Positions 3,055 to 10,359 of a DNA stretch of 15,103 bases are shown here, one piece after another. Positions within the stretch are counted from its first letter, which is position 1; every line of letters begins with the position of its first letter. The notes under the pieces were generated by a model. It worked only from the letters and a program-made list of their open reading frames with translations. It was not told the DNA's origin and did not search any database. Source of the stretch: Thermodesulfovibrionales bacterium (GTDB lineage Bacteria > Nitrospirota > Thermodesulfovibrionia > Thermodesulfovibrionales > UBA6898). Made by a program: the position numbers and the translations under genes. The stretch lies in contig JBIOIY010000063.1 of the NCBI GenBank assembly GCA_044450345.1, positions 1 to 15,103 on the forward strand. The letters run 5' to 3'.

Positions 3055-3426
3055 ATGCCACTGAAGCCCACGACGTTAAGGCTCGATGAGGAAGAATATG
3101 AGAAGTTGAAAAAGTATCTGGAGGAATTTGGCGATCCGGATATCAACGTGGCGTATATCTTGAGATCCTATATACGGGACCTCAACAGGGCGATGCCTTT
3201 TATGATTAAATCAGGCAGGGACCTGAAAACCTATTTTGGGTTACTCGGTTCCTGGCTCAAACAGTTTGGTTCGATAACCGATGCTGATATGTTCTCCAAG
3301 ATGATCAACCCATGGGCATTATGGAATATGCCGGGTGGAGCTCCTGAGAGAGGTGCGGAAAGGTCTGAGAATGGCGCGGAGAAAGGGAAAAGCGAAGGCA
3401 AGGAGACAGGCAGCAAGGAAGAATAA
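3055..3426 (+). CDS. Putative ribbon-helix-helix (CopG/Arc/MetJ-like) regulator of the pha cluster
   Basis: RBS GAGGAG. N-terminus follows the RHH pattern: beta strand PTTLRL, helix DEEEYEKLKKYLEEFG, helix INVAYILRSYIRDL. Then an aromatic amphipathic segment (YFGLLGSWLKQF..NPWALW) and a charged disordered tail. First gene of the operon. Confidence 0.7.
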   Translation: MPLKPTTLRLDEEEYEKLKKYLEEFGDPDINVAYILRSYIRDLNRAMPFMIKSGRDLKTYFGLLGSWLKQFGSITDADMFSKMINPWALWNMPGGAPERGAERSENGAEKGKSEGKETGSKEE

Positions 3427-3473: not shown

Positions 3474-3917
3474 ATGACTAGCGACGACTGTAGCTCGAAG
3501 ATGAATGACATGTTTACCAATCCGCTCTTCAAGATGGGGTTTTTCGACTTTTTCTTGAAGATGCAGCAGGAAGGTATAGATGCGGCGCGAAAGTACTGGA
3601 TCAAATATGCGCAAGATAACAGCTTCTTTCCGGGTACCATGGATACGTATGAACGAATGGCTGACTTCTACATCATACTCGGTCTTGTGCCGAAAATAAA
3701 ACATGATCAGGTCCTCAGTGAAAACAATAGCCTGAAGGAAGAGAACAAGTTTCTCAGAGATACCATTAAGGAACTTCAGATCAACCTTTTTGCCGAGGGC
3801 GGGGAAGCGGCCCGGCGCATCTGGCACGAAAGCATCGACAAGCAGCTTGAAGTAAACAAGGAGATCTCGAAGAACTTCTTTGAGCTCTTCAGGATGTTAA
3901 AGGTGAGTAGCGAGTAG
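3474..3917 (+). CDS. Uncharacterised helical/coiled-coil protein, probably PHA granule-associated (147 aa)
   Basis: RBS GAAAGGAGG upstream of ATG 3474. LGLVPKxKHDxVL motif followed by a coiled coil. A paralog within this window (8885-9598) supports that it is coding. Confidence 0.8.
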   Translation: MTSDDCSSKMNDMFTNPLFKMGFFDFFLKMQQEGIDAARKYWIKYAQDNSFFPGTMDTYERMADFYIILGLVPKIKHDQVLSENNSLKEENKFLRDTIKELQINLFAEGGEAARRIWHESIDKQLEVNKEISKNFFELFRMLKVSSE

Positions 3918-3989
3918 TCTGCTCCCGGATTATTCCGGATTTAGGTCAGTATTCTACTGATTATTTTATAAAAGTATGAGGTGAGAAGT

Positions 3990-4340
3990 ATGGATAAAGT
4001 AGTCGACTATGTTGATGCGTGGATGAAGTCCCAGAAGGATTTCATGGAGAACTGGGTAAAGTCCCAGAAGGATCTGATGGAGAGCTTCACCGAGGCAACG
4101 AAGAAACTTCAGGAGTCTCTTATGGCCACGGGCGGCTCGCAGGAAGGTCCGGCAAAGGAGATGTTTGCAATGTACAACTCGTGGCTGACGACGCTCGTTA
4201 ATTCCTCAAAAGGTTTTTCTGACCAAGCAGGGAAGATACAGGAGAACTGGAAGAACACCGTCGAAAAGCAGATGGAGATGACCAAGGAGATGGTAAAGAA
4301 GATGTCTGAGCTGTTTCCGCAGCCCGGCGAGAAAAAATAG
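3990..4340 (+). CDS. Phasin-like protein homologous to the PhaE N-terminal region (116 aa)
   Basis: RBS GAGGTG upstream of ATG 3990. W/M/Q-rich amphipathic helices. DY-D-W-KSQ, TE-T-K-Q--L---GG and MY-SW are shared with the adjacent PhaE N-terminus. Confidence 0.75.
   Translation: MDKVVDYVDAWMKSQKDFMENWVKSQKDLMESFTEATKKLQESLMATGGSQEGPAKEMFAMYNSWLTTLVNSSKGFSDQAGKIQENWKNTVEKQMEMTKEMVKKMSELFPQPGEKK
4020..4085 (+). repeat. In-frame 33-bp tandem duplication (11-aa repeat)
   Basis: WMKSQKDFMEN / WVKSQKDLMES; 28 of 33 nt identical by hand count. Confidence 0.9.
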
Positions 4341-4367
4341 GGCTACTGCCTGGAAAGGAGATATTTC

Positions 4368-5432
4368 ATGGAAAGCACGAAGGACTATTTCGACATCTGG
4401 CGTAAGTCACAGGAGCTCGTCTTTGGGAACCTGACCGAGATGACGCAGAAATTCCAGCAGGGCCTCCAGGGTCTCGGGGGCAATGTAGGAGGGATGCAGG
4501 GCTTCGGCGGTTTCCAGGATATGTATACCTCGTGGGCAAAGTCAGTAATGAATGCCCTGCAGGGGACAGAGACAGCCGATATGGATTTTGTAAAGGAGAC
4601 CCTTTCGAAAACCCTGACCTGCTCCATTGCCTACCAGAAGCTATATGAAATATGGCTCCCTTTCTTTAAGGCAATTCAGGAAAAAAGCGTAAGCCCCAAT
4701 TCCTACAAGGATCTGACTGACCCGGCAAAATTCAAGGAGATGATGGACCGCGTCTTCGGTTTTGATCCCACCGCAGTTTCCCAGATGGTCGAACAGGCCA
4801 CAAAGCTCCTTGAAACCCTGGCGGGATATTCGCAGGGCTTTCTGAAACCCTGGTTGGATGCTTCCGGGAAAAGCTTCAAAGAATTTCCCAACATAATGGA
4901 AGGTCACCCAGAATCGGTTATGAAGATCTTCCATACGTTGTTTCGCGCCTTTGACAGCACCGTAGGCAGGGCGTTTCATGTCCCCGCCGTGGGGAAGGAC
5001 AGGGAGAAGATAGAGCTGCTTCTTAGGAGCCTTGATGATCTCTCGGTCTACCTTGCCAAGAGGACAGAATACGAGCATACGATGTACGTCACTGGTCTCG
5101 GGGCATTCGAAAAAGTAATCGCTACCCTTGCGGATAAGGTCAGCAAGGGGGAGGAGTTCAAGAGATTCGACGAATTCTTCGACCTCTGGATCAGTGTGAG
5201 CGAGAAGGCCTACTATGCCCTTTTTCAGACGCAGGAGTTCTCGAAGATGCAGGGAGAACTGCTCGAAACATCTGCGCATCTGCGGCAGCACAACTTTAAG
5301 TTGATGGAGCTCTATCTCTACGATTTTCCCATCGCACTCCGTTCGGAAATGGATGCTCTGTACAAGACGGTCTACGACCTGAAGAAGAAAGTGAAAAGCC
5401 TCGAAAAACGGATCGGGGAGGTGCACGCATGA
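4368..5432 (+). CDS. phaE: Class III PHA synthase subunit PhaE
   Basis: 354 aa. C-terminal PhaE signature FFDLWISVSEKAY..F.TQEFSKMQGEL..PIALRSEMDALYKTVYDLKKKV. Its stop overlaps the phaC start (ATGA 5429-5432). Confidence 0.92.
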   Translation: MESTKDYFDIWRKSQELVFGNLTEMTQKFQQGLQGLGGNVGGMQGFGGFQDMYTSWAKSVMNALQGTETADMDFVKETLSKTLTCSIAYQKLYEIWLPFFKAIQEKSVSPNSYKDLTDPAKFKEMMDRVFGFDPTAVSQMVEQATKLLETLAGYSQGFLKPWLDASGKSFKEFPNIMEGHPESVMKIFHTLFRAFDSTVGRAFHVPAVGKDREKIELLLRSLDDLSVYLAKRTEYEHTMYVTGLGAFEKVIATLADKVSKGEEFKRFDEFFDLWISVSEKAYYALFQTQEFSKMQGELLETSAHLRQHNFKLMELYLYDFPIALRSEMDALYKTVYDLKKKVKSLEKRIGEVHA

Positions 5433-6616
5433 AATCAATAGTGGAAAATTTCAGCGTACATAATTTCATCAAGGAGATCGGCGAAATCAACACGAAACTC
5501 ATCAAGGGCACAGGAACCCTCGCCGGAATAAACGAGATAGACGTCGGGACCGCGCCGAAGGAACTCGTCTACGAAGAAGACAAGCTCAAGCTCTACCACT
5601 ATACGCAGGAAGGCAAGATAACCTGTAAGGTGCCGGTGCTGATCGTTTACGCCCTGGTGAACCGGCAGTACATCCTTGACCTCCAGCCTGACAGGAGCAT
5701 CGTAAGGAACCTTCTGCAGCACGGCATGGACCTGTATATCATTAATTGGGGGTATCCTACAAAGTCGGATATGTATCTTACCCTTGATGATTATATCACC
5801 GGATATCTGGACAATTGCGTCGATTTTATCAGGAAGAGAGCCGGGAAGGACAAGATAAATCTGATGGGCATCTGTCAGGGCGGGACCTTTTCAGGGATCT
5901 ATTCTGCCCTGTACCCGGAGAAAGTGAAGAATCTGGTTGCCATGGTGGCGCCCTTCGATTTTTCGACAAATGACGGCCTTCTCTTCAGCTGGTCAAAAAA
6001 TTTGAATATAGATTCTCTCGTCGATGCCTATCGGATCATCCCCGGGGATTTCATGAATTCCGGTTTCCTCATGCTGATGCCCTTCGCCCTCAATATCAAA
6101 AAGTACGTGGACATGCTCGATGTGATAGAAGACAGGGAGAAGCTCCTCAATTTCCTCCGGATGGAAAAATGGATATTCGACAGTCCCGGTCAGCCAGGAG
6201 AATGCCTGAGGCAGTTCGTCAAGGACTGCTATCAGGGCAACAAGCTCATCAAGGGGGAACTCAGGGTCGGCGACCGTCTGGTCGATCTCAAGAACATAAC
6301 GATGCCCTTGCTCAATATCTACGCCTCTGCAGACCATCTGGTGCCTCCTGCCGCGACACGGCCTCTCAATGACGCCGTCGGCACGACGGATAAAACGCTG
6401 TACGAGTTCAAGGGCGGGCACATTGGTCTTTTTGTCGGCTCGAAGTCCCAGAAGGAACTCGCGCCAACCCTTGCCACCTGGCTTCACGAGCGGGACGGAG
6501 AAGATCAGACAAAGACTTCCAAAAAACCGGAGAGCACCAGGGCTGTAAAGGCCGGCCGGACAACTGCTGGCAGAAAACGAATCCTGAAGGATACCGGGCG
6601 GCGCAAGACGAAATAG
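5429..6616 (+). CDS. phaC: Class III PHA synthase subunit PhaC
   Basis: 395 aa. VYALVNRQYILDLQPDRS, lipase-box-like GICQGG (catalytic Cys), FLRMEKWIFDSP, DHLVP (Asp), GGHIG (His). Confidence 0.97.
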   Translation: MKSIVENFSVHNFIKEIGEINTKLIKGTGTLAGINEIDVGTAPKELVYEEDKLKLYHYTQEGKITCKVPVLIVYALVNRQYILDLQPDRSIVRNLLQHGMDLYIINWGYPTKSDMYLTLDDYITGYLDNCVDFIRKRAGKDKINLMGICQGGTFSGIYSALYPEKVKNLVAMVAPFDFSTNDGLLFSWSKNLNIDSLVDAYRIIPGDFMNSGFLMLMPFALNIKKYVDMLDVIEDREKLLNFLRMEKWIFDSPGQPGECLRQFVKDCYQGNKLIKGELRVGDRLVDLKNITMPLLNIYASADHLVPPAATRPLNDAVGTTDKTLYEFKGGHIGLFVGSKSQKELAPTLATWLHERDGEDQTKTSKKPESTRAVKAGRTTAGRKRILKDTGRRKTK

Positions 6617-6669
6617 ACACGGGGAGACAACACCCCCTAACAGGACCTTAGTACAGGGAGGTTTTTATT

Positions 6670-7413
6670 ATGGAATTTACCGGCAAGAAGGTGATAGTAA
6701 CGGGCGGTGCAAGAGGAATGGGAAGGAAGTTCGCCGTAGACTTGAAGCGTCTCGGCGCCAAGCCATTCGTGGTGGACGTGGTTCAGGAAAACCTCGACGC
6801 GCTTAAGAGTGAGACCGATATCTCAGGGCAGGTGGTAGATGTGAGCAACGAGAAGAGCGTCGAGACGTTCTTCGAAAACTATGTCTCGGAAAACGGCGCT
6901 CCGGACGTGCTGATCAACAATGCTGGCATAACCTCCGATGCCCTTTTTATAAAGCAAAAGGGAGATGAGATAACAAAATTCCCATTCGCGAACTGGGAAA
7001 GGGTGATCAACGTCAATCTGACGGGTGTGTTTCTCTGTGCACGGGAAGCCGCCTATCACATGGTCAAGCACAAGGTCAAGGGTGTGCTTATCAATATTTC
7101 ATCCATCAGCCGTGCCGGAAACCTCGGCCAGACGAACTATTCGGCCACTAAAGCTGCCGTTGATTCGATGACTGTGACCTGGGCCAAGGAGCTTTCAAGG
7201 TATGGCATACGGGTGGGCGCAATCGCGCCCGGTTATATCAATACCGAGATGGTTGCGAAGATCAGACCCGATGTTCTCGAAAAGGTCGTTCAGAATATCC
7301 CCCTCGGGAGATTGGGCGAGATGGAGGAGATATCCCGGTCTGTCCAGTTCATCATACAGAATGATTTCTTCACCGGGAGGATCATGGAAGTAGACGGCGG
7401 GATGAGAATCTGA
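6670..7413 (+). CDS. phaB: SDR-family 3-ketoacyl/acetoacetyl-CoA reductase (FabG-like, functional PhaB)
   Basis: TGGARGMG, NNAG, NISS and YSATK motifs. Located between phaC and the thiolase. The symbol is assigned from context. Confidence 0.85.
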   Translation: MEFTGKKVIVTGGARGMGRKFAVDLKRLGAKPFVVDVVQENLDALKSETDISGQVVDVSNEKSVETFFENYVSENGAPDVLINNAGITSDALFIKQKGDEITKFPFANWERVINVNLTGVFLCAREAAYHMVKHKVKGVLINISSISRAGNLGQTNYSATKAAVDSMTVTWAKELSRYGIRVGAIAPGYINTEMVAKIRPDVLEKVVQNIPLGRLGEMEEISRSVQFIIQNDFFTGRIMEVDGGMRI

Positions 7414-7485
7414 TTTTTTCTCCGTGCCGGACGGATATATTTTGGTGTTCTCACTCCTGTGGGATCCCTTGAAGGAGGAGCAGTT

Positions 7486-8667
7486 ATGGAAGCGTATATC
7501 GTGGGTGGTGTAAGAACAGCCGTCGGGAGGTTCAATGGCTCCCTGGCCTCGCTGAACACTATTGACCTCGGGTCCGAAGTGATCAGGGAGGTACTGAGAA
7601 GAACTTCAATTAAAGGAAGCAACGTCGATGAAGTCATCATGGGGAATGTCCTTCAGGCCGGATTGGGGCAGAACCCTGCGAGGCAAGCAGCCATCATGGC
7701 AGGTCTTCCGGAAAACATCCCTGCCTTTACGGTGAACAAGGTATGCGGCTCAGGCTTGAAGTCTGTTAGTCTTGCGGGCCAGGCAGTCGCTTCAGGTGAG
7801 GCTAAGGCCATTATCGCCGGCGGAATGGAGCATATGACGAGTGCCCCCTATGTCGTGAAGTCAGCGCGGTGGGGACAGCGTTTGGGAAACACCGAGATGA
7901 TAGATACGCTGGTCAACGATGCCTTGTGGGATATGTTTTACGAATGTCACATGGGTGCGACTGCCGAGAACGTGGCAGAGAAGTATGGGATTACCAGGGA
8001 AGAGCAGGATGCATTTGCTGCTGCATCCCAAAAGAAGACGGAGCAGTCCATCAAGGAAGGGAAGTTCAAGGAAGAGATCGTTCCGCTGAAGATCAAACAA
8101 CCAAAAGGCCCAGACACGATCTTTGACACTGACGAGCATCCCCGTTTTGGTACGACTATTGAGAGCCTGGCAAAACTGCAGCCGGCGTTCAAGAAGGAAG
8201 GGACTGTAACGGCGGGGAATGCCTCCGGAATTAATGATGGAGCTGCTGCGGTGCTGGTAGTGTCAAAAGAAAAAATGAAGGAGCTTAACCCGGCCTGGGC
8301 ATTCAGGATTAGGGGCTCGTCATCGGCTGCCCTGGACCCTGCGTTTATGGGACTCGGCCCGATAAACGCCTGCAAGCAGCTCATCTTAAGGGCGAAGTGC
8401 TCGGTAACCGACCTTGACCTTGTGGAGATCAATGAGGCGTTCGCCTCCCAGTCGATCCAGGTCCACCGTGAAATGGGATGGGGCATGGATAGAGTGAACG
8501 TTTTGGGAGGCGCCATTGCCCTGGGACACCCGGTAGGTGCAAGCGGCACAAGAATCCTCGTCACCCTTCTCTACGAAATGGTGCGAAGGGATGTTACCTT
8601 GGGTCTCGCCTCCCTTTGCATCGGCGGGGGGCAGGGCATTGCCATGATCGTGGAACGGCTCAGGTGA
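7486..8667 (+). CDS. phaA: Acetyl-CoA C-acetyltransferase (beta-ketothiolase)
   Basis: RBS GAAGGAGGAG before ATG 7486. Motifs NKVCGSG, NEAFA, GHPVGASG and CIGGGQG. Confidence 0.95.
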   Translation: MEAYIVGGVRTAVGRFNGSLASLNTIDLGSEVIREVLRRTSIKGSNVDEVIMGNVLQAGLGQNPARQAAIMAGLPENIPAFTVNKVCGSGLKSVSLAGQAVASGEAKAIIAGGMEHMTSAPYVVKSARWGQRLGNTEMIDTLVNDALWDMFYECHMGATAENVAEKYGITREEQDAFAAASQKKTEQSIKEGKFKEEIVPLKIKQPKGPDTIFDTDEHPRFGTTIESLAKLQPAFKKEGTVTAGNASGINDGAAAVLVVSKEKMKELNPAWAFRIRGSSSAALDPAFMGLGPINACKQLILRAKCSVTDLDLVEINEAFASQSIQVHREMGWGMDRVNVLGGAIALGHPVGASGTRILVTLLYEMVRRDVTLGLASLCIGGGQGIAMIVERLR

Positions 8668-8884
8668 ACCTCAGCCGTCAGTGGGCGTAAAGAAGAAGAG
8701 CCCGCAGACCACAAAGTCACACTCTCAGGCGAGTTCACTGGAATCTCAGGTACAGGAAGAGACTTTTATGACTGCACTCTGACTGATGGCTGCGGTTTTC
8801 ATCCCTTAGTAGATGCGCGATCCTATCAGGTTTCGAATACGTTGAGTAAGAGGAAGGAGATTTGCGCCAAGTATAATTGTCAGA

Positions 8885-9598
8885 TTATGCCGATAATCCA
8901 ATCACGGAAGCTTTTTCCCATCGTGCAGTGTATGTTTTGTGTCGTATTGGAGGAGAACGCTTAATCATTATCTTTTGTTCTCTTTTGAGGGTAATAGACG
9001 ACTTGATGCATAGACCGGAGTCGCTGATATTCAGGATGACACCCTTCACCGTTTTATCTGCTGCTTCACTTAAGACAAATTCTACAGGAGACACAAACTT
9101 ATAGCGTGTCTCACGGCGCGTCTCAACAGTATTGAATGGTTCCTCCGTTCGCTTCCCATAAAAGGAAGTACTCCTTTGCCTGAAGAATTCGGAAAAGTTC
9201 TTTGCGATCTCCTTATTCATCTCAATCTGCTTGTCAATAATGCTTTCCCATGCTTTCCGCACCTTCTCTCCGCCCTCTGCAAACATCCTCATCTGGAGTT
9301 GCATGATTGTTTCCCTTAAGAAGGCATTCTGATGGTGTAGCTTCTCATGTTCCTCGAGTACCTCGTCATGCTTCGCTTTCGGTACGAGACCGAGACTAAT
9401 ATAAAAATCAATCATTTTTTCGTACACATCCAGTGGATTGAGAAAAAAGACGTTCTTGTAAGGATATGAATGCCAGAATCTCCTTGCGGCCTCGATGCCC
9501 TCACGTTGCATTTTTCGGAAGAAGTCGAAGAAGCCCTTTCTAAAAAGAAAATCATTGAAGAGGGTAATTATGGATTTATGTTGTTCTTCGTTAAACAT
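8885..9598 (-). CDS. Paralog of the 3474-3917 protein fused to a C-terminal PilZ domain
   Basis: ATG 9598 with GGAG 8 nt upstream (GTG 9607 is an alternative start). The N-domain aligns ungapped with the 3474 ORF (74/123 identical by hand). The C-domain has RRETR (RxxxR), NISDSG (D/NxSxxG) and ARW..IGL. Confidence 0.9.
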   Translation of the reverse strand: MFNEEQHKSIITLFNDFLFRKGFFDFFRKMQREGIEAARRFWHSYPYKNVFFLNPLDVYEKMIDFYISLGLVPKAKHDEVLEEHEKLHHQNAFLRETIMQLQMRMFAEGGEKVRKAWESIIDKQIEMNKEIAKNFSEFFRQRSTSFYGKRTEEPFNTVETRRETRYKFVSPVEFVLSEAADKTVKGVILNISDSGLCIKSSITLKREQKIMIKRSPPIRHKTYTARWEKASVIGLSA

Positions 9599-9684
9599 AA
9601 CGCCCACTCCATTCGGGCAGAGGAAAGCAAATGTTAATTAATTCTTATCACGACATGCGACTATTGTCAAGGGGTATGCTGCTA

Positions 9685-9894
9685 CAAGTTTTCTCTTCCG
9701 CTGATGCAGCAGATTAGGATGAATATCGAGTTCTTGCGCGACCCTGCCGACAGGCATCCCCTTTTCTATCACCATCTGCACCGCATTCCTCTTAAACTCA
9801 CGAGTGAAAAGACGGGTGTCCTTCTTTCCCATACACAGACCTCCTGTTCATAGTACAAATTCTTCGGTGTGTCCATCAAATAGGGGGGAAATCA
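9685..9894 (-). mobile_element. Truncated IS3-family element: left inverted repeat + 5' part of OrfA transposase
   Basis: Minus strand begins TGATTTCCCCCCTATTTGATGGACAC (IS3-type 5'-TG..CCCC..GGACA end). RBS AGGAGG, then MGKKDTRLFTREFKRNAVQMVIEKGMPVGRVAQELDIHPNLLHQ (HTH_Tnp_1 pattern). Similarity is lost near 9690; no OrfB or right IR is present. Confidence 0.85.
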
Positions 9895-9921
9895 AGGAGT
9901 ACGCAGTAATTCTGCTTGACA

Positions 9922-9949
9922 GGCGAGGTGATGTGATGGCGAGGTGATG
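9922..9949. repeat. 12-bp direct repeat GGCGAGGTGATG x2 (16-bp period)
   Basis: Copies at 9922-9933 and 9938-9949, directly after TTGACA (9916-9921). Confidence 0.75.
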
Positions 9950-9972
9950 ATGATTGACTTTTAATACCAATT

Positions 9973-10359
9973 TTGCTACCTTTTATCTTAAAGGTAAAGG
10001 CTGTGAGTAACCGTTCTGCTATTGACAGAGTTATTGCCACCAATCTCAAAAGACTTAGGGAACGCTCAAGCTTAAAGCAGCATGAGCTTGCTCAGATGGC
10101 CGAAACGTCTGAGATGAGGTTATGCGCTTGCGAGGACGGGCGCGAGTGCGTGGATAAAGATATGATGATGAGAATATGCCGGTGCCTCGGTGTTCATTTC
10201 TATGAATTTTTTATAGAGCCCGATACCCCTATCTTAGTCGATGAAGACGAGAAGTTATTCCTTGAGAAATGTCGAATGGCTAAAGAGAAGAGAGTGATCG
10301 AGCAGGTCTTATCATTTCTTGATTTCCTTAACGAAACCAAAGCAGAAATAATGAAATAG
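9973..10359 (+). CDS. XRE/Cro-CI family HTH transcriptional regulator (start may be GTG 10003)
   Basis: IATNLKRLRERSSLKQHELAQMAETS..EDGR..RICRCLGVHFYEFF matches HTH_3. The recognition helix is divergent and Cys-rich, so the gene may be decaying. Confidence 0.8.
   Translation: MLPFILKVKAVSNRSAIDRVIATNLKRLRERSSLKQHELAQMAETSEMRLCACEDGRECVDKDMMMRICRCLGVHFYEFFIEPDTPILVDEDEKLFLEKCRMAKEKRVIEQVLSFLDFLNETKAEIMK

Follow-up and report, generated by a model that had tools for sequence, protein, structure and literature searches.

The DNA analysed here is a stretch of 15,103 nucleotides, called the window in what follows (positions 1 to 15,103 of contig JBIOIY010000063.1, assembly GCA_044450345.1), from a Thermodesulfovibrionales bacterium of the phylum Nitrospirota. 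It carries a class III polyhydroxyalkanoate (PHA) synthase operon, and two proteins encoded in and beside this operon were found to share a domain of 147 residues. The plain copy, protein A (3474-3917, + strand), consists of this domain alone, 147 aa from its ATG, and its gene is the first conserved one of the phaEC operon. The second copy, protein B (8885-9598, - strand; 237 aa plus stop), is encoded convergently with phaA and continues into a PilZ domain with the motifs for binding cyclic di-GMP (c-di-GMP). This domain combination is real, conserved and undescribed, and it makes a c-di-GMP input to PHA metabolism plausible. The best explanation of the whole, to which we give an even chance, is that the family works with the class III PHA synthase and that B is its c-di-GMP-receptor form. 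Two things appear to be new, namely a putative PilZ receptor with a PHA-linked output domain and a conserved, unannotated family of the pha operon.

Paralogy of the two proteins

BLASTP aligned A and B over 147 residues without gaps, giving 78 identities (53%) and an E value of 2e-56. Our own ungapped count was 77/147, and the best window of 123 residues held 74 identities, which is exactly the gapless figure of 74/123 reported in an earlier note on this DNA. In a shuffle control (n = 2000), the mean number of identities was 9.35 and the maximum was 22 of 147. The start codons of both genes are shared with their homologs, which begin at the same ATGs. The domain occurs twice in the assembly (3.19 Mb, 86 contigs, 91% complete), as A and as residues 1-147 of B (9158-9598, - strand), with no third copy.

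The PilZ domain of the longer copy

The C-terminal part of B (residues 158-237; 8888-9127, - strand) scored 20.9 bits (E value 4.7e-4) against the Pfam PilZ family (PF07238), somewhat under its cut-off of 22.5, over profile positions 2-53 of 102. A match to the same family at E <= 0.01 was obtained for 24 of 27 fused orthologs, and the orthologs P0123 and P0124 scored above the PilZ cut-off (24.1 and 24.7 bits). In the structural model of B, six strands extend over residues 166-236, and the ten-residue blocks covering residues 171-237 have an average predicted local distance difference test score (pLDDT) of 73-88. The helical part is poorly defined in this model of the monomer. When the model was compared with 48,161 PDB representatives, all of the top ten matches were PilZ domains (Z 7.8-11.2). 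The best one was PA0012 with c-di-GMP (8u0i_A; Z 11.2, root-mean-square deviation 2.8, 76/85 residues aligned), and the others were the PilZ domains of BcsA/CeSA, VCA0042, YcgR, MotI, PP4397 and Alg44 (Z 7.8-9.4). By these matches, the PilZ domain of B is short but whole. A truncation of B was also considered and ruled out, since the same ...GLSA/S closes 27/27 orthologs and the barrel matches a PilZ protein of 85 residues over its whole length.

In PilZ proteins, c-di-GMP binding is associated with an RxxxR motif in the linker N-terminal to the barrel and with a (D/N)xSxxG motif. The earlier note had described a PilZ domain with both motifs intact on the longer copy, and both were recovered, as RRETR at residues 161-165 (9104-9118, - strand) and as NISDSG at residues 190-195 (9014-9031, - strand). 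The 27 fused orthologs, at 48-84% identity to B, all keep R165, N190, S192 and G195, and R161 is at least 90% conserved among them. The linker of about 20 residues that joins the PilZ domain to the helical domain is conserved as well, and it carries the RxxxR. Taken together, the model and the alignment show a short but complete PilZ barrel with both conserved motifs at the end of B. The window's genome gave 20 GGDEF matches, so that c-di-GMP is plausibly made in this organism.

The six-stranded barrel is common to B and to the PilZ receptors PA0012 (8u0i), YcgR (5y6f), MotI/DgrA (5vx6), Alg44 (PilZ domain, 4rt0) and BcsA (PilZ domain, 4p00). These aligned over 73-77 residues with Z values of 8.1-11.2, and they likewise have RxxxR in the preceding linker and the (D/N)xSxxG motif. 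The identity of B to these chains is low (13-19%), its ligand binding is a prediction, and its partner domain, unlike theirs, is a coiled-coil family of the PHA operon, for which the papers searched gave no combination with PilZ.

Alternatively, the PilZ domain of B may no longer bind c-di-GMP and may serve as a barrel for protein-protein interaction. This would be in line with a Pfam score below the gathering threshold, with the very short domain (77 residues from RxxxR to the end) and with its loss or damage in two related loci, L083 and L065, which are described below. However, both motifs are invariant or nearly so in 27 orthologs, and the best structural match is an 85-residue PilZ protein that was solved with c-di-GMP. 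A barrel that has lost its ligand is considered quite improbable.

The same PilZ subtype, with its conserved FYGK...RRxEIR linker, was observed in other settings among metagenome proteins. In P0131 and P0140 it stands behind segments that read as membrane-spanning, and both proteins retain a remnant of the last helix of the family; in P0150 it stands behind a PAS domain. A three-domain form of 382 aa, in which a chemoreceptor zinc-binding (CZB) domain (37.5 bits) precedes the family domain and PilZ (24.7 bits), is encoded at L038:1028-2173 (G376:C45) and is also represented by P0124. No pha gene was found within 12 kb of fetched DNA around the L038 gene.

Linkage of the family to the class III PHA synthase

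When 401 sampled genomes from the window's phylum were searched with a family profile, 25 proved to contain the shared domain, and 42 more matched on the PilZ columns of the profile only. In 23 of the 24 other genomes with the domain, the plain gene lies directly 5', on the same strand, of zero to three phasin-like genes followed by phaE and phaC. The 24th locus is a contig of 3,046 bases that ends after the phasin-like gene. Class III PhaC was detected in 29 of the 401 genomes and in 24 of the 25 that have the family; the exception, G079, is 65% complete and is cut at that contig. Five genomes with class III PhaC were found without the family. Neither the synthase nor the shared domain was present in the 14 other genomes of the window's family-level group, which indicates that the locus is patchily distributed among close kin. 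The family is tightly tied to the class III PHA synthase operon, and the linkage of the plain protein to pha genes, which the earlier note had drawn from the window, was reproduced when co-location was scored in the phylum sample.

In the window, the gene for A is followed on the + strand by those for a phasin-like protein of 119 aa (3981-4340; Phasin_2, E 7.5e-4, below the cut-off), PhaE, the class III PHA synthase subunit (4368-5432; PF09712, 112.9 bits), class III PhaC (5429-6616; TIGR01836, 484.1 bits against a cut-off of 365.3), a PhaB-like short-chain dehydrogenase/reductase (SDR; 6670-7413) and a PhaA-like thiolase, acetyl-CoA acetyltransferase (7459-8667). The last two were assigned by Pfam and NCBIfam matches, and the identities of PhaE, PhaC, the reductase and the thiolase are those that the earlier note had given. 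At three other loci, L042, L043 and L041 (genomes G212, G200 and G043), two or three phasin-like genes stand in tandem after the family gene and before phaE. The phasin-like protein of locus L066 has 168 aa and an internal triplicated repeat.

A word-indexed search returned 202 relatives of the family. Among the best 120 of these, nearly all are 137-150 aa long and five are of 156-174 aa; none has a precomputed Pfam domain, and where an organism is named, which is seldom, it belongs to Thermodesulfobacteriota, Dissulfurispiraceae or Nitrospiria. The shared domain matched no family in Pfam and NCBIfam, the hits being limited to sub-threshold coiled-coil noise (Takusan, bZIP_2, DUF2205, YabA). 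In searches of A and B against phasin models (Phasin_2 PF09361, TIGR01841), no phasin family was among the hits at E <= 1, and the PhaE profile PF09712 gave no match. Some members carry the Joint Genome Institute (JGI) name 'regulator of replication initiation timing'. This name was rejected, as YabA scored 14 bits against cut-offs of 142 and 130, over the coiled-coil stretch only. A PilZ receptor built on a protein of this operon would also put a name to a hitherto unannotated gene, the strongly conserved one with which class III pha operons begin in Nitrospirota and their relatives. One divergent member (L096:6752-8311, G405:C12), 41% identical to A, is encoded directly 5' of a gene for a patatin-like phospholipase, and no pha gene was seen within 8 kb of it.

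Anatomy of the family and its shared modules

The AlphaFold model of A, based on an alignment of 67 sequences, is all-helical and elongated, with a mean pLDDT of 77.8 and helices at residues 3-14, 17-48, 55-68 and 74-145. In this alignment G70, E90 and N91 are invariant and E83, L87 and L94 are kept in at least 90% of the rows; E83 is invariant in smaller alignments. L87, L94 and L101 are spaced by seven residues, and N91 follows four residues after L87. This heptad pattern, placed at residues 80-108 (3711-3797, + strand), reads as a leucine zipper with a buried asparagine. In other leucine zippers a buried asparagine favours parallel dimers, and the central zipper of the family probably makes a parallel dimer. 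The core positions L87, N91, L94, I98 and L101 are the same in A and B. Besides this zipper and a C-terminal helix module, the family has an N-terminal module that is conserved.

Residues 86-146 of A (3729-3911, + strand) form a C-terminal module that was homologous by hhalign to the last 60 residues of the phasin-like family (probability 97.8%, E 7.2e-13). The phasin-like family in turn resembles PhaE, with homology between its first 67 residues and the PhaE N-terminus (98.9%, E 2.9e-17), and Phasin_2 was matched at E <= 0.01 by 13 of its 21 members. In the metagenomic protein P0132, the phasin-like N-module and the family domain are naturally fused. The nearest ESM Atlas clusters outside the family's own were an automatically named phasin cluster (0.86) and a cluster with 64% PF09712 members (0.79), proximities that are leads only. 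By these comparisons, the operon encodes a set of helical proteins made from shared modules, as would fit proteins that meet on one surface or partner. The operon context and an amphipathic helical character are common to A, B, the phasins (PF09361) and the phasin-like protein of the operon. The last 60 residues of A and B are homologous to this neighbour, whereas the first 85 residues and the zipper are specific to the family.

A Foldseek search of the helical domain against the PDB gave no match at E <= 0.001, and VIA-align returned generic helical matches only (Z <= 7.3), BAR-type chains included. In a complex prediction of PhaE, PhaC (residues 1-356) and A the score was 0.00 against a mark of 0.32; this run was made without controls and counts neither way.

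It could also be that the family regulates pha expression or synthase activity and is not a granule coat, for instance acting with a ribbon-helix-helix (RHH)-like protein, with B as its c-di-GMP-responsive form. The family gene lies 3' of a conserved open reading frame (ORF) of 123 aa, which in the window is directly 5' of A (3055-3426, + strand). This ORF has no Pfam or NCBIfam match, and in our reading of its sequence the N-terminus looks RHH-like. Blastp on the called ORFs located it ahead of the family gene at 6 of 30 loci (L041, L061, L065, L066, L067 and L085), and tblastn showed it also in L083, L086, L087, L088 and L094, which makes 11 loci overall. Moreover, family residues 8-81 are fused to a cyclic nucleotide (cNMP)-binding domain and a Crp-type helix-turn-helix (HTH) in a protein of 298 aa (L073:10007-10900; also L072 and P0153), and in L073, a locus of genome G405, a PhaB-like SDR gene lies about 650 nt downstream of the fusion. 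On the other hand, no DNA-binding domain was detected in A or B with Pfam and NCBIfam, the only detectable homology of the family is to its phasin-like neighbour, and the RHH character of the 123-aa ORF is a reading of its sequence. A purely regulatory role is regarded as distinctly unlikely.

Origin of the fused form

A second word-indexed search gave about 36 clusters of fused homologs at 90% identity, which cover at least 87% of B and are 48-84% identical to it. One cluster is named by NCBI as 'PilZ domain-containing protein [Thermodesulfovibrionales bacterium]', and all genome records with a fused copy are labelled Nitrospirota/Nitrospirae or Nitrospiraceae. In the phylum sample the fused form was found in 2 of 401 genomes, G000 and G376. 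A tree was built from 79 N-domains. All 27 fused sequences group there in a single clade with a Shimodaira-Hasegawa-like approximate likelihood ratio test (SH-aLRT) support of 99, and the nearest neighbours of this clade are two plain proteins of 147 aa; A and B fall into different, well-supported clades. Between the plain and the fused clades, 36 positions are conserved and identical, and five are conserved but switched (plain to fused: P17F, K20R, F71L, N84H and Q114R). E90 is present in 52/52 plain sequences versus 19% of the fused ones. The tree indicates that the PilZ fusion is old and of single origin, in Thermodesulfovibrionales-type Nitrospirota.

Genomic setting of the fused genes

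Sixteen fused loci were obtained, and pha genes were present in the fetched DNA of three of them: the window, L065, which has the same layout as the window, and L066 (genome G404). Class III PhaC was found in 6/6 genomes known to have a fused copy (G000, G376 and G401-G404). Four of these genomes have a plain copy too; it lies directly 5' of phaEC in G376, G401 and G403, and in G402 it shares a contig with the PhaC match and precedes it by about 1.5 kb. G404 has the fused copy only, with no plain gene in the usual slot. Its fused gene is divergent from a run of genes for the 165-aa ORF, the RHH-like protein, a phasin, PhaE, PhaC and PhaB, and directly 3' of it lies a gene for a PhaZ-like intracellular depolymerase (L066:11278-12684; TIGR01849, 288.9 bits against a cut-off of 300.75). 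PhaZ (TIGR01849) had no match in the window's genome, which is 91% complete. At L083, a B-clade gene without PilZ stands at the head of a pha locus.

The arrangement in G404 means that a plain partner cannot be obligatory for the fused protein. This bears on the model of the earlier note, in which B co-assembles with A or displaces it. The common zipper core of A and B keeps such pairing conceivable, and it is the obligatory character of the partner that falls. The model has further points against it, namely the separate old clades of A and B, the clade-specific substitutions, the 13 fused loci of 16 that show no pha genes in the fetched DNA and the defect in L065.

Several results weigh against B being the c-di-GMP-receptor form of a family that works with the PHA synthase. 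On the side of the family, the domain itself matches no phasin or PhaE profile, and its fold has no informative structural match. Divergent members, 36-41% identical, occur outside pha loci (L096, L097); the one in G401 adjoins surE and pcm-type genes, and another belongs to G405, a genome of unknown completeness in which no class III PhaC match was found. As for the fused form, no pha gene was seen at 13 of the 16 loci, where the flanks fetched ranged from 0.2 to 10 kb, and these loci have no conserved neighbour in common. With 20.9 bits, B stays below the gathering score that Pfam sets for PilZ (22.5), and a search of PDB sequences with the fused-clade profile gave nothing below E 0.01 and no PilZ chain at E <= 1. 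The fused gene of L065, the closest relative (84% identity), has deletions of 1 nt and 12 nt (L065:530-600) that break the frame and remove part of the RxxxR, and the B-clade gene at L083:918-1397 ends after the helical domain, without a PilZ. These defects mean that the PilZ part can be lost, or they are assembly errors. Finally, a transposase HTH fragment of 64 aa (9638-9832, - strand; HTH_Tnp_1, 36.9 bits, cut-off 24.1) is located directly 5' of B on the same strand, so that the place of B beside phaA may be secondary. The fragment may mark a rearrangement joint.

Some of these observations could be explained if B were a c-di-GMP receptor that acts outside PHA metabolism, with the helical domain as an inherited dimerising scaffold and the proximity to phaA as the outcome of a rearrangement. 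The variable neighbours of the 13 fused loci would then be expected, as would the transposase fragment that abuts B, the five substitutions of its clade and the loss of E90, which is invariant in the plain copies. Yet the 36 positions identical in both clades include the C-terminal module held in common with the phasin-like protein, and class III PhaC accompanies the fused copy in 6/6 genomes while it is found in 29/401 of the sample. In addition, the sole copy of G404 lies between the pha operon and the PhaZ-like gene, and the B-clade gene of L083 heads a pha locus. An action of B outside PHA metabolism is considered unlikely.

Proposed mode of action and relation to known systems

In the favoured explanation, with B as the c-di-GMP-receptor form of a PHA-linked family, the family would act at the surface of the PHA granule or on PhaEC as a dimer held by the zipper. 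B belongs to the clade in which a duplicate of the family protein gained a short, complete PilZ domain. This protein would bind c-di-GMP at the RxxxR of the linker and the NxSxxG of the barrel. In other PilZ proteins the RxxxR-bearing linker wraps around the ligand. Binding in B may similarly make the linker close over the barrel, which would shift the barrel relative to the end of the long C-terminal helix, the module held in common with the phasin-like protein. This shift could then alter how the helical domain engages its partner, which may be the granule surface, PhaE/PhaC, the phasin-like protein or A. We infer ligand binding and dimerisation in this scheme, and likewise which partner is engaged and in which direction PHA would change.

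A wider proposal, which we put forward as possible but doubtful, is that the family serves as a portable module, either docking on the PHA machinery or sensing the state of that machinery, and that it has been wired to nucleotide second messengers at least twice. One wiring would be to PilZ, in the B clade and in the CZB-family-PilZ form of G376, and the other would join the N-terminal 80 residues to a cNMP-binding Crp regulator. B would then be the first c-di-GMP receptor that acts directly on a carbon-storage granule or synthase, and the build-up or mobilisation of PHA would track the c-di-GMP level.

Nutrient status, PhaR-type repressors, phasins and global regulators are known to control PHA storage. 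A PilZ receptor on a PHA-operon protein would, if true, connect the motile/sessile switch with carbon storage directly and at the post-translational level. The source organisms are uncultured soil and peat bacteria, which limits tests in a native host, and the cloned operon would make the idea testable in E. coli.

The closest functional analogy is PhaF of Pseudomonas. According to a review (PMC5658603; the primary paper on the Pseudomonas putida protein is PMC3574117), the helical part of PhaF binds PHA and is followed by a short leucine zipper, and a domain that binds DNA is added to these. On that description, PhaF and B would have in common that they are encoded with a pha cluster, are elongated and helical, and have a PHA-related helical part followed by a zipper and then a separate functional domain. 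They differ in that no sequence or profile similarity of PhaF to A or B was found, that PhaF adds a DNA-binding domain and B a PilZ barrel, and that PhaF belongs to a class II system for medium-chain-length PHA and its granule binding has been shown, whereas A and B are known from their sequences. PhaR/AniA, described in PMC12542648 as a PHB-binding transcription regulator, is similar in being a protein that couples the state of the PHA granule to regulation, and the Crp-fused relatives (L073) suggest a comparable logic. In contrast to this regulator, A and B have no DNA-binding domain, and no homology to it was detected.

Among the papers listed for PilZ or c-di-GMP together with PHA terms, judged by title and opening of the abstract and with subscription journals outside the scope of the search, none was found to describe a PilZ protein or c-di-GMP receptor acting on PHA. 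The main text of a 2021 review of PHA regulatory circuits (PMC9049629) contained, by term search, no c-di-GMP, PilZ or second messenger. Within these sources, no description of a PilZ-bearing PHA protein was found, in line with the earlier note, which knew of no described PilZ-bearing granule protein.

Other features of the locus

The pha locus of the window begins with a helical ORF of 165 aa (1975-2472, + strand) for which no Pfam or NCBIfam family was found; the same ORF heads loci L066 and L083. The junction between phaA and B is bridged by DNA contigs of two runs from two studies (5028-9070 and 7883-8970), of which one run may be the source sample. Metatranscriptome contigs from two libraries were found on A, phaE, phaC, phaB and phaA at 90-99% likeness and none on B. 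Such contigs are no proof of transcription, though they come from RNA libraries, and nothing follows from a lack of cover. A scan of positions 8600-10000 for promoters and terminators gave two promoter-like sites and one terminator-like site, no excess over shuffled sequences. The only strong promoter-like site for B (9670-9641) was observed inside the 64-aa transposase fragment.

A second PilZ protein is encoded in the window by a hybrid sensor gene that runs off the window start (1-1509, - strand) and comprises receiver, PilZ, PAS and HisKA domains. Its PilZ domain scored 35.4 bits, above the cut-off, and some 0.5 kb separate the gene from the start of the pha locus.

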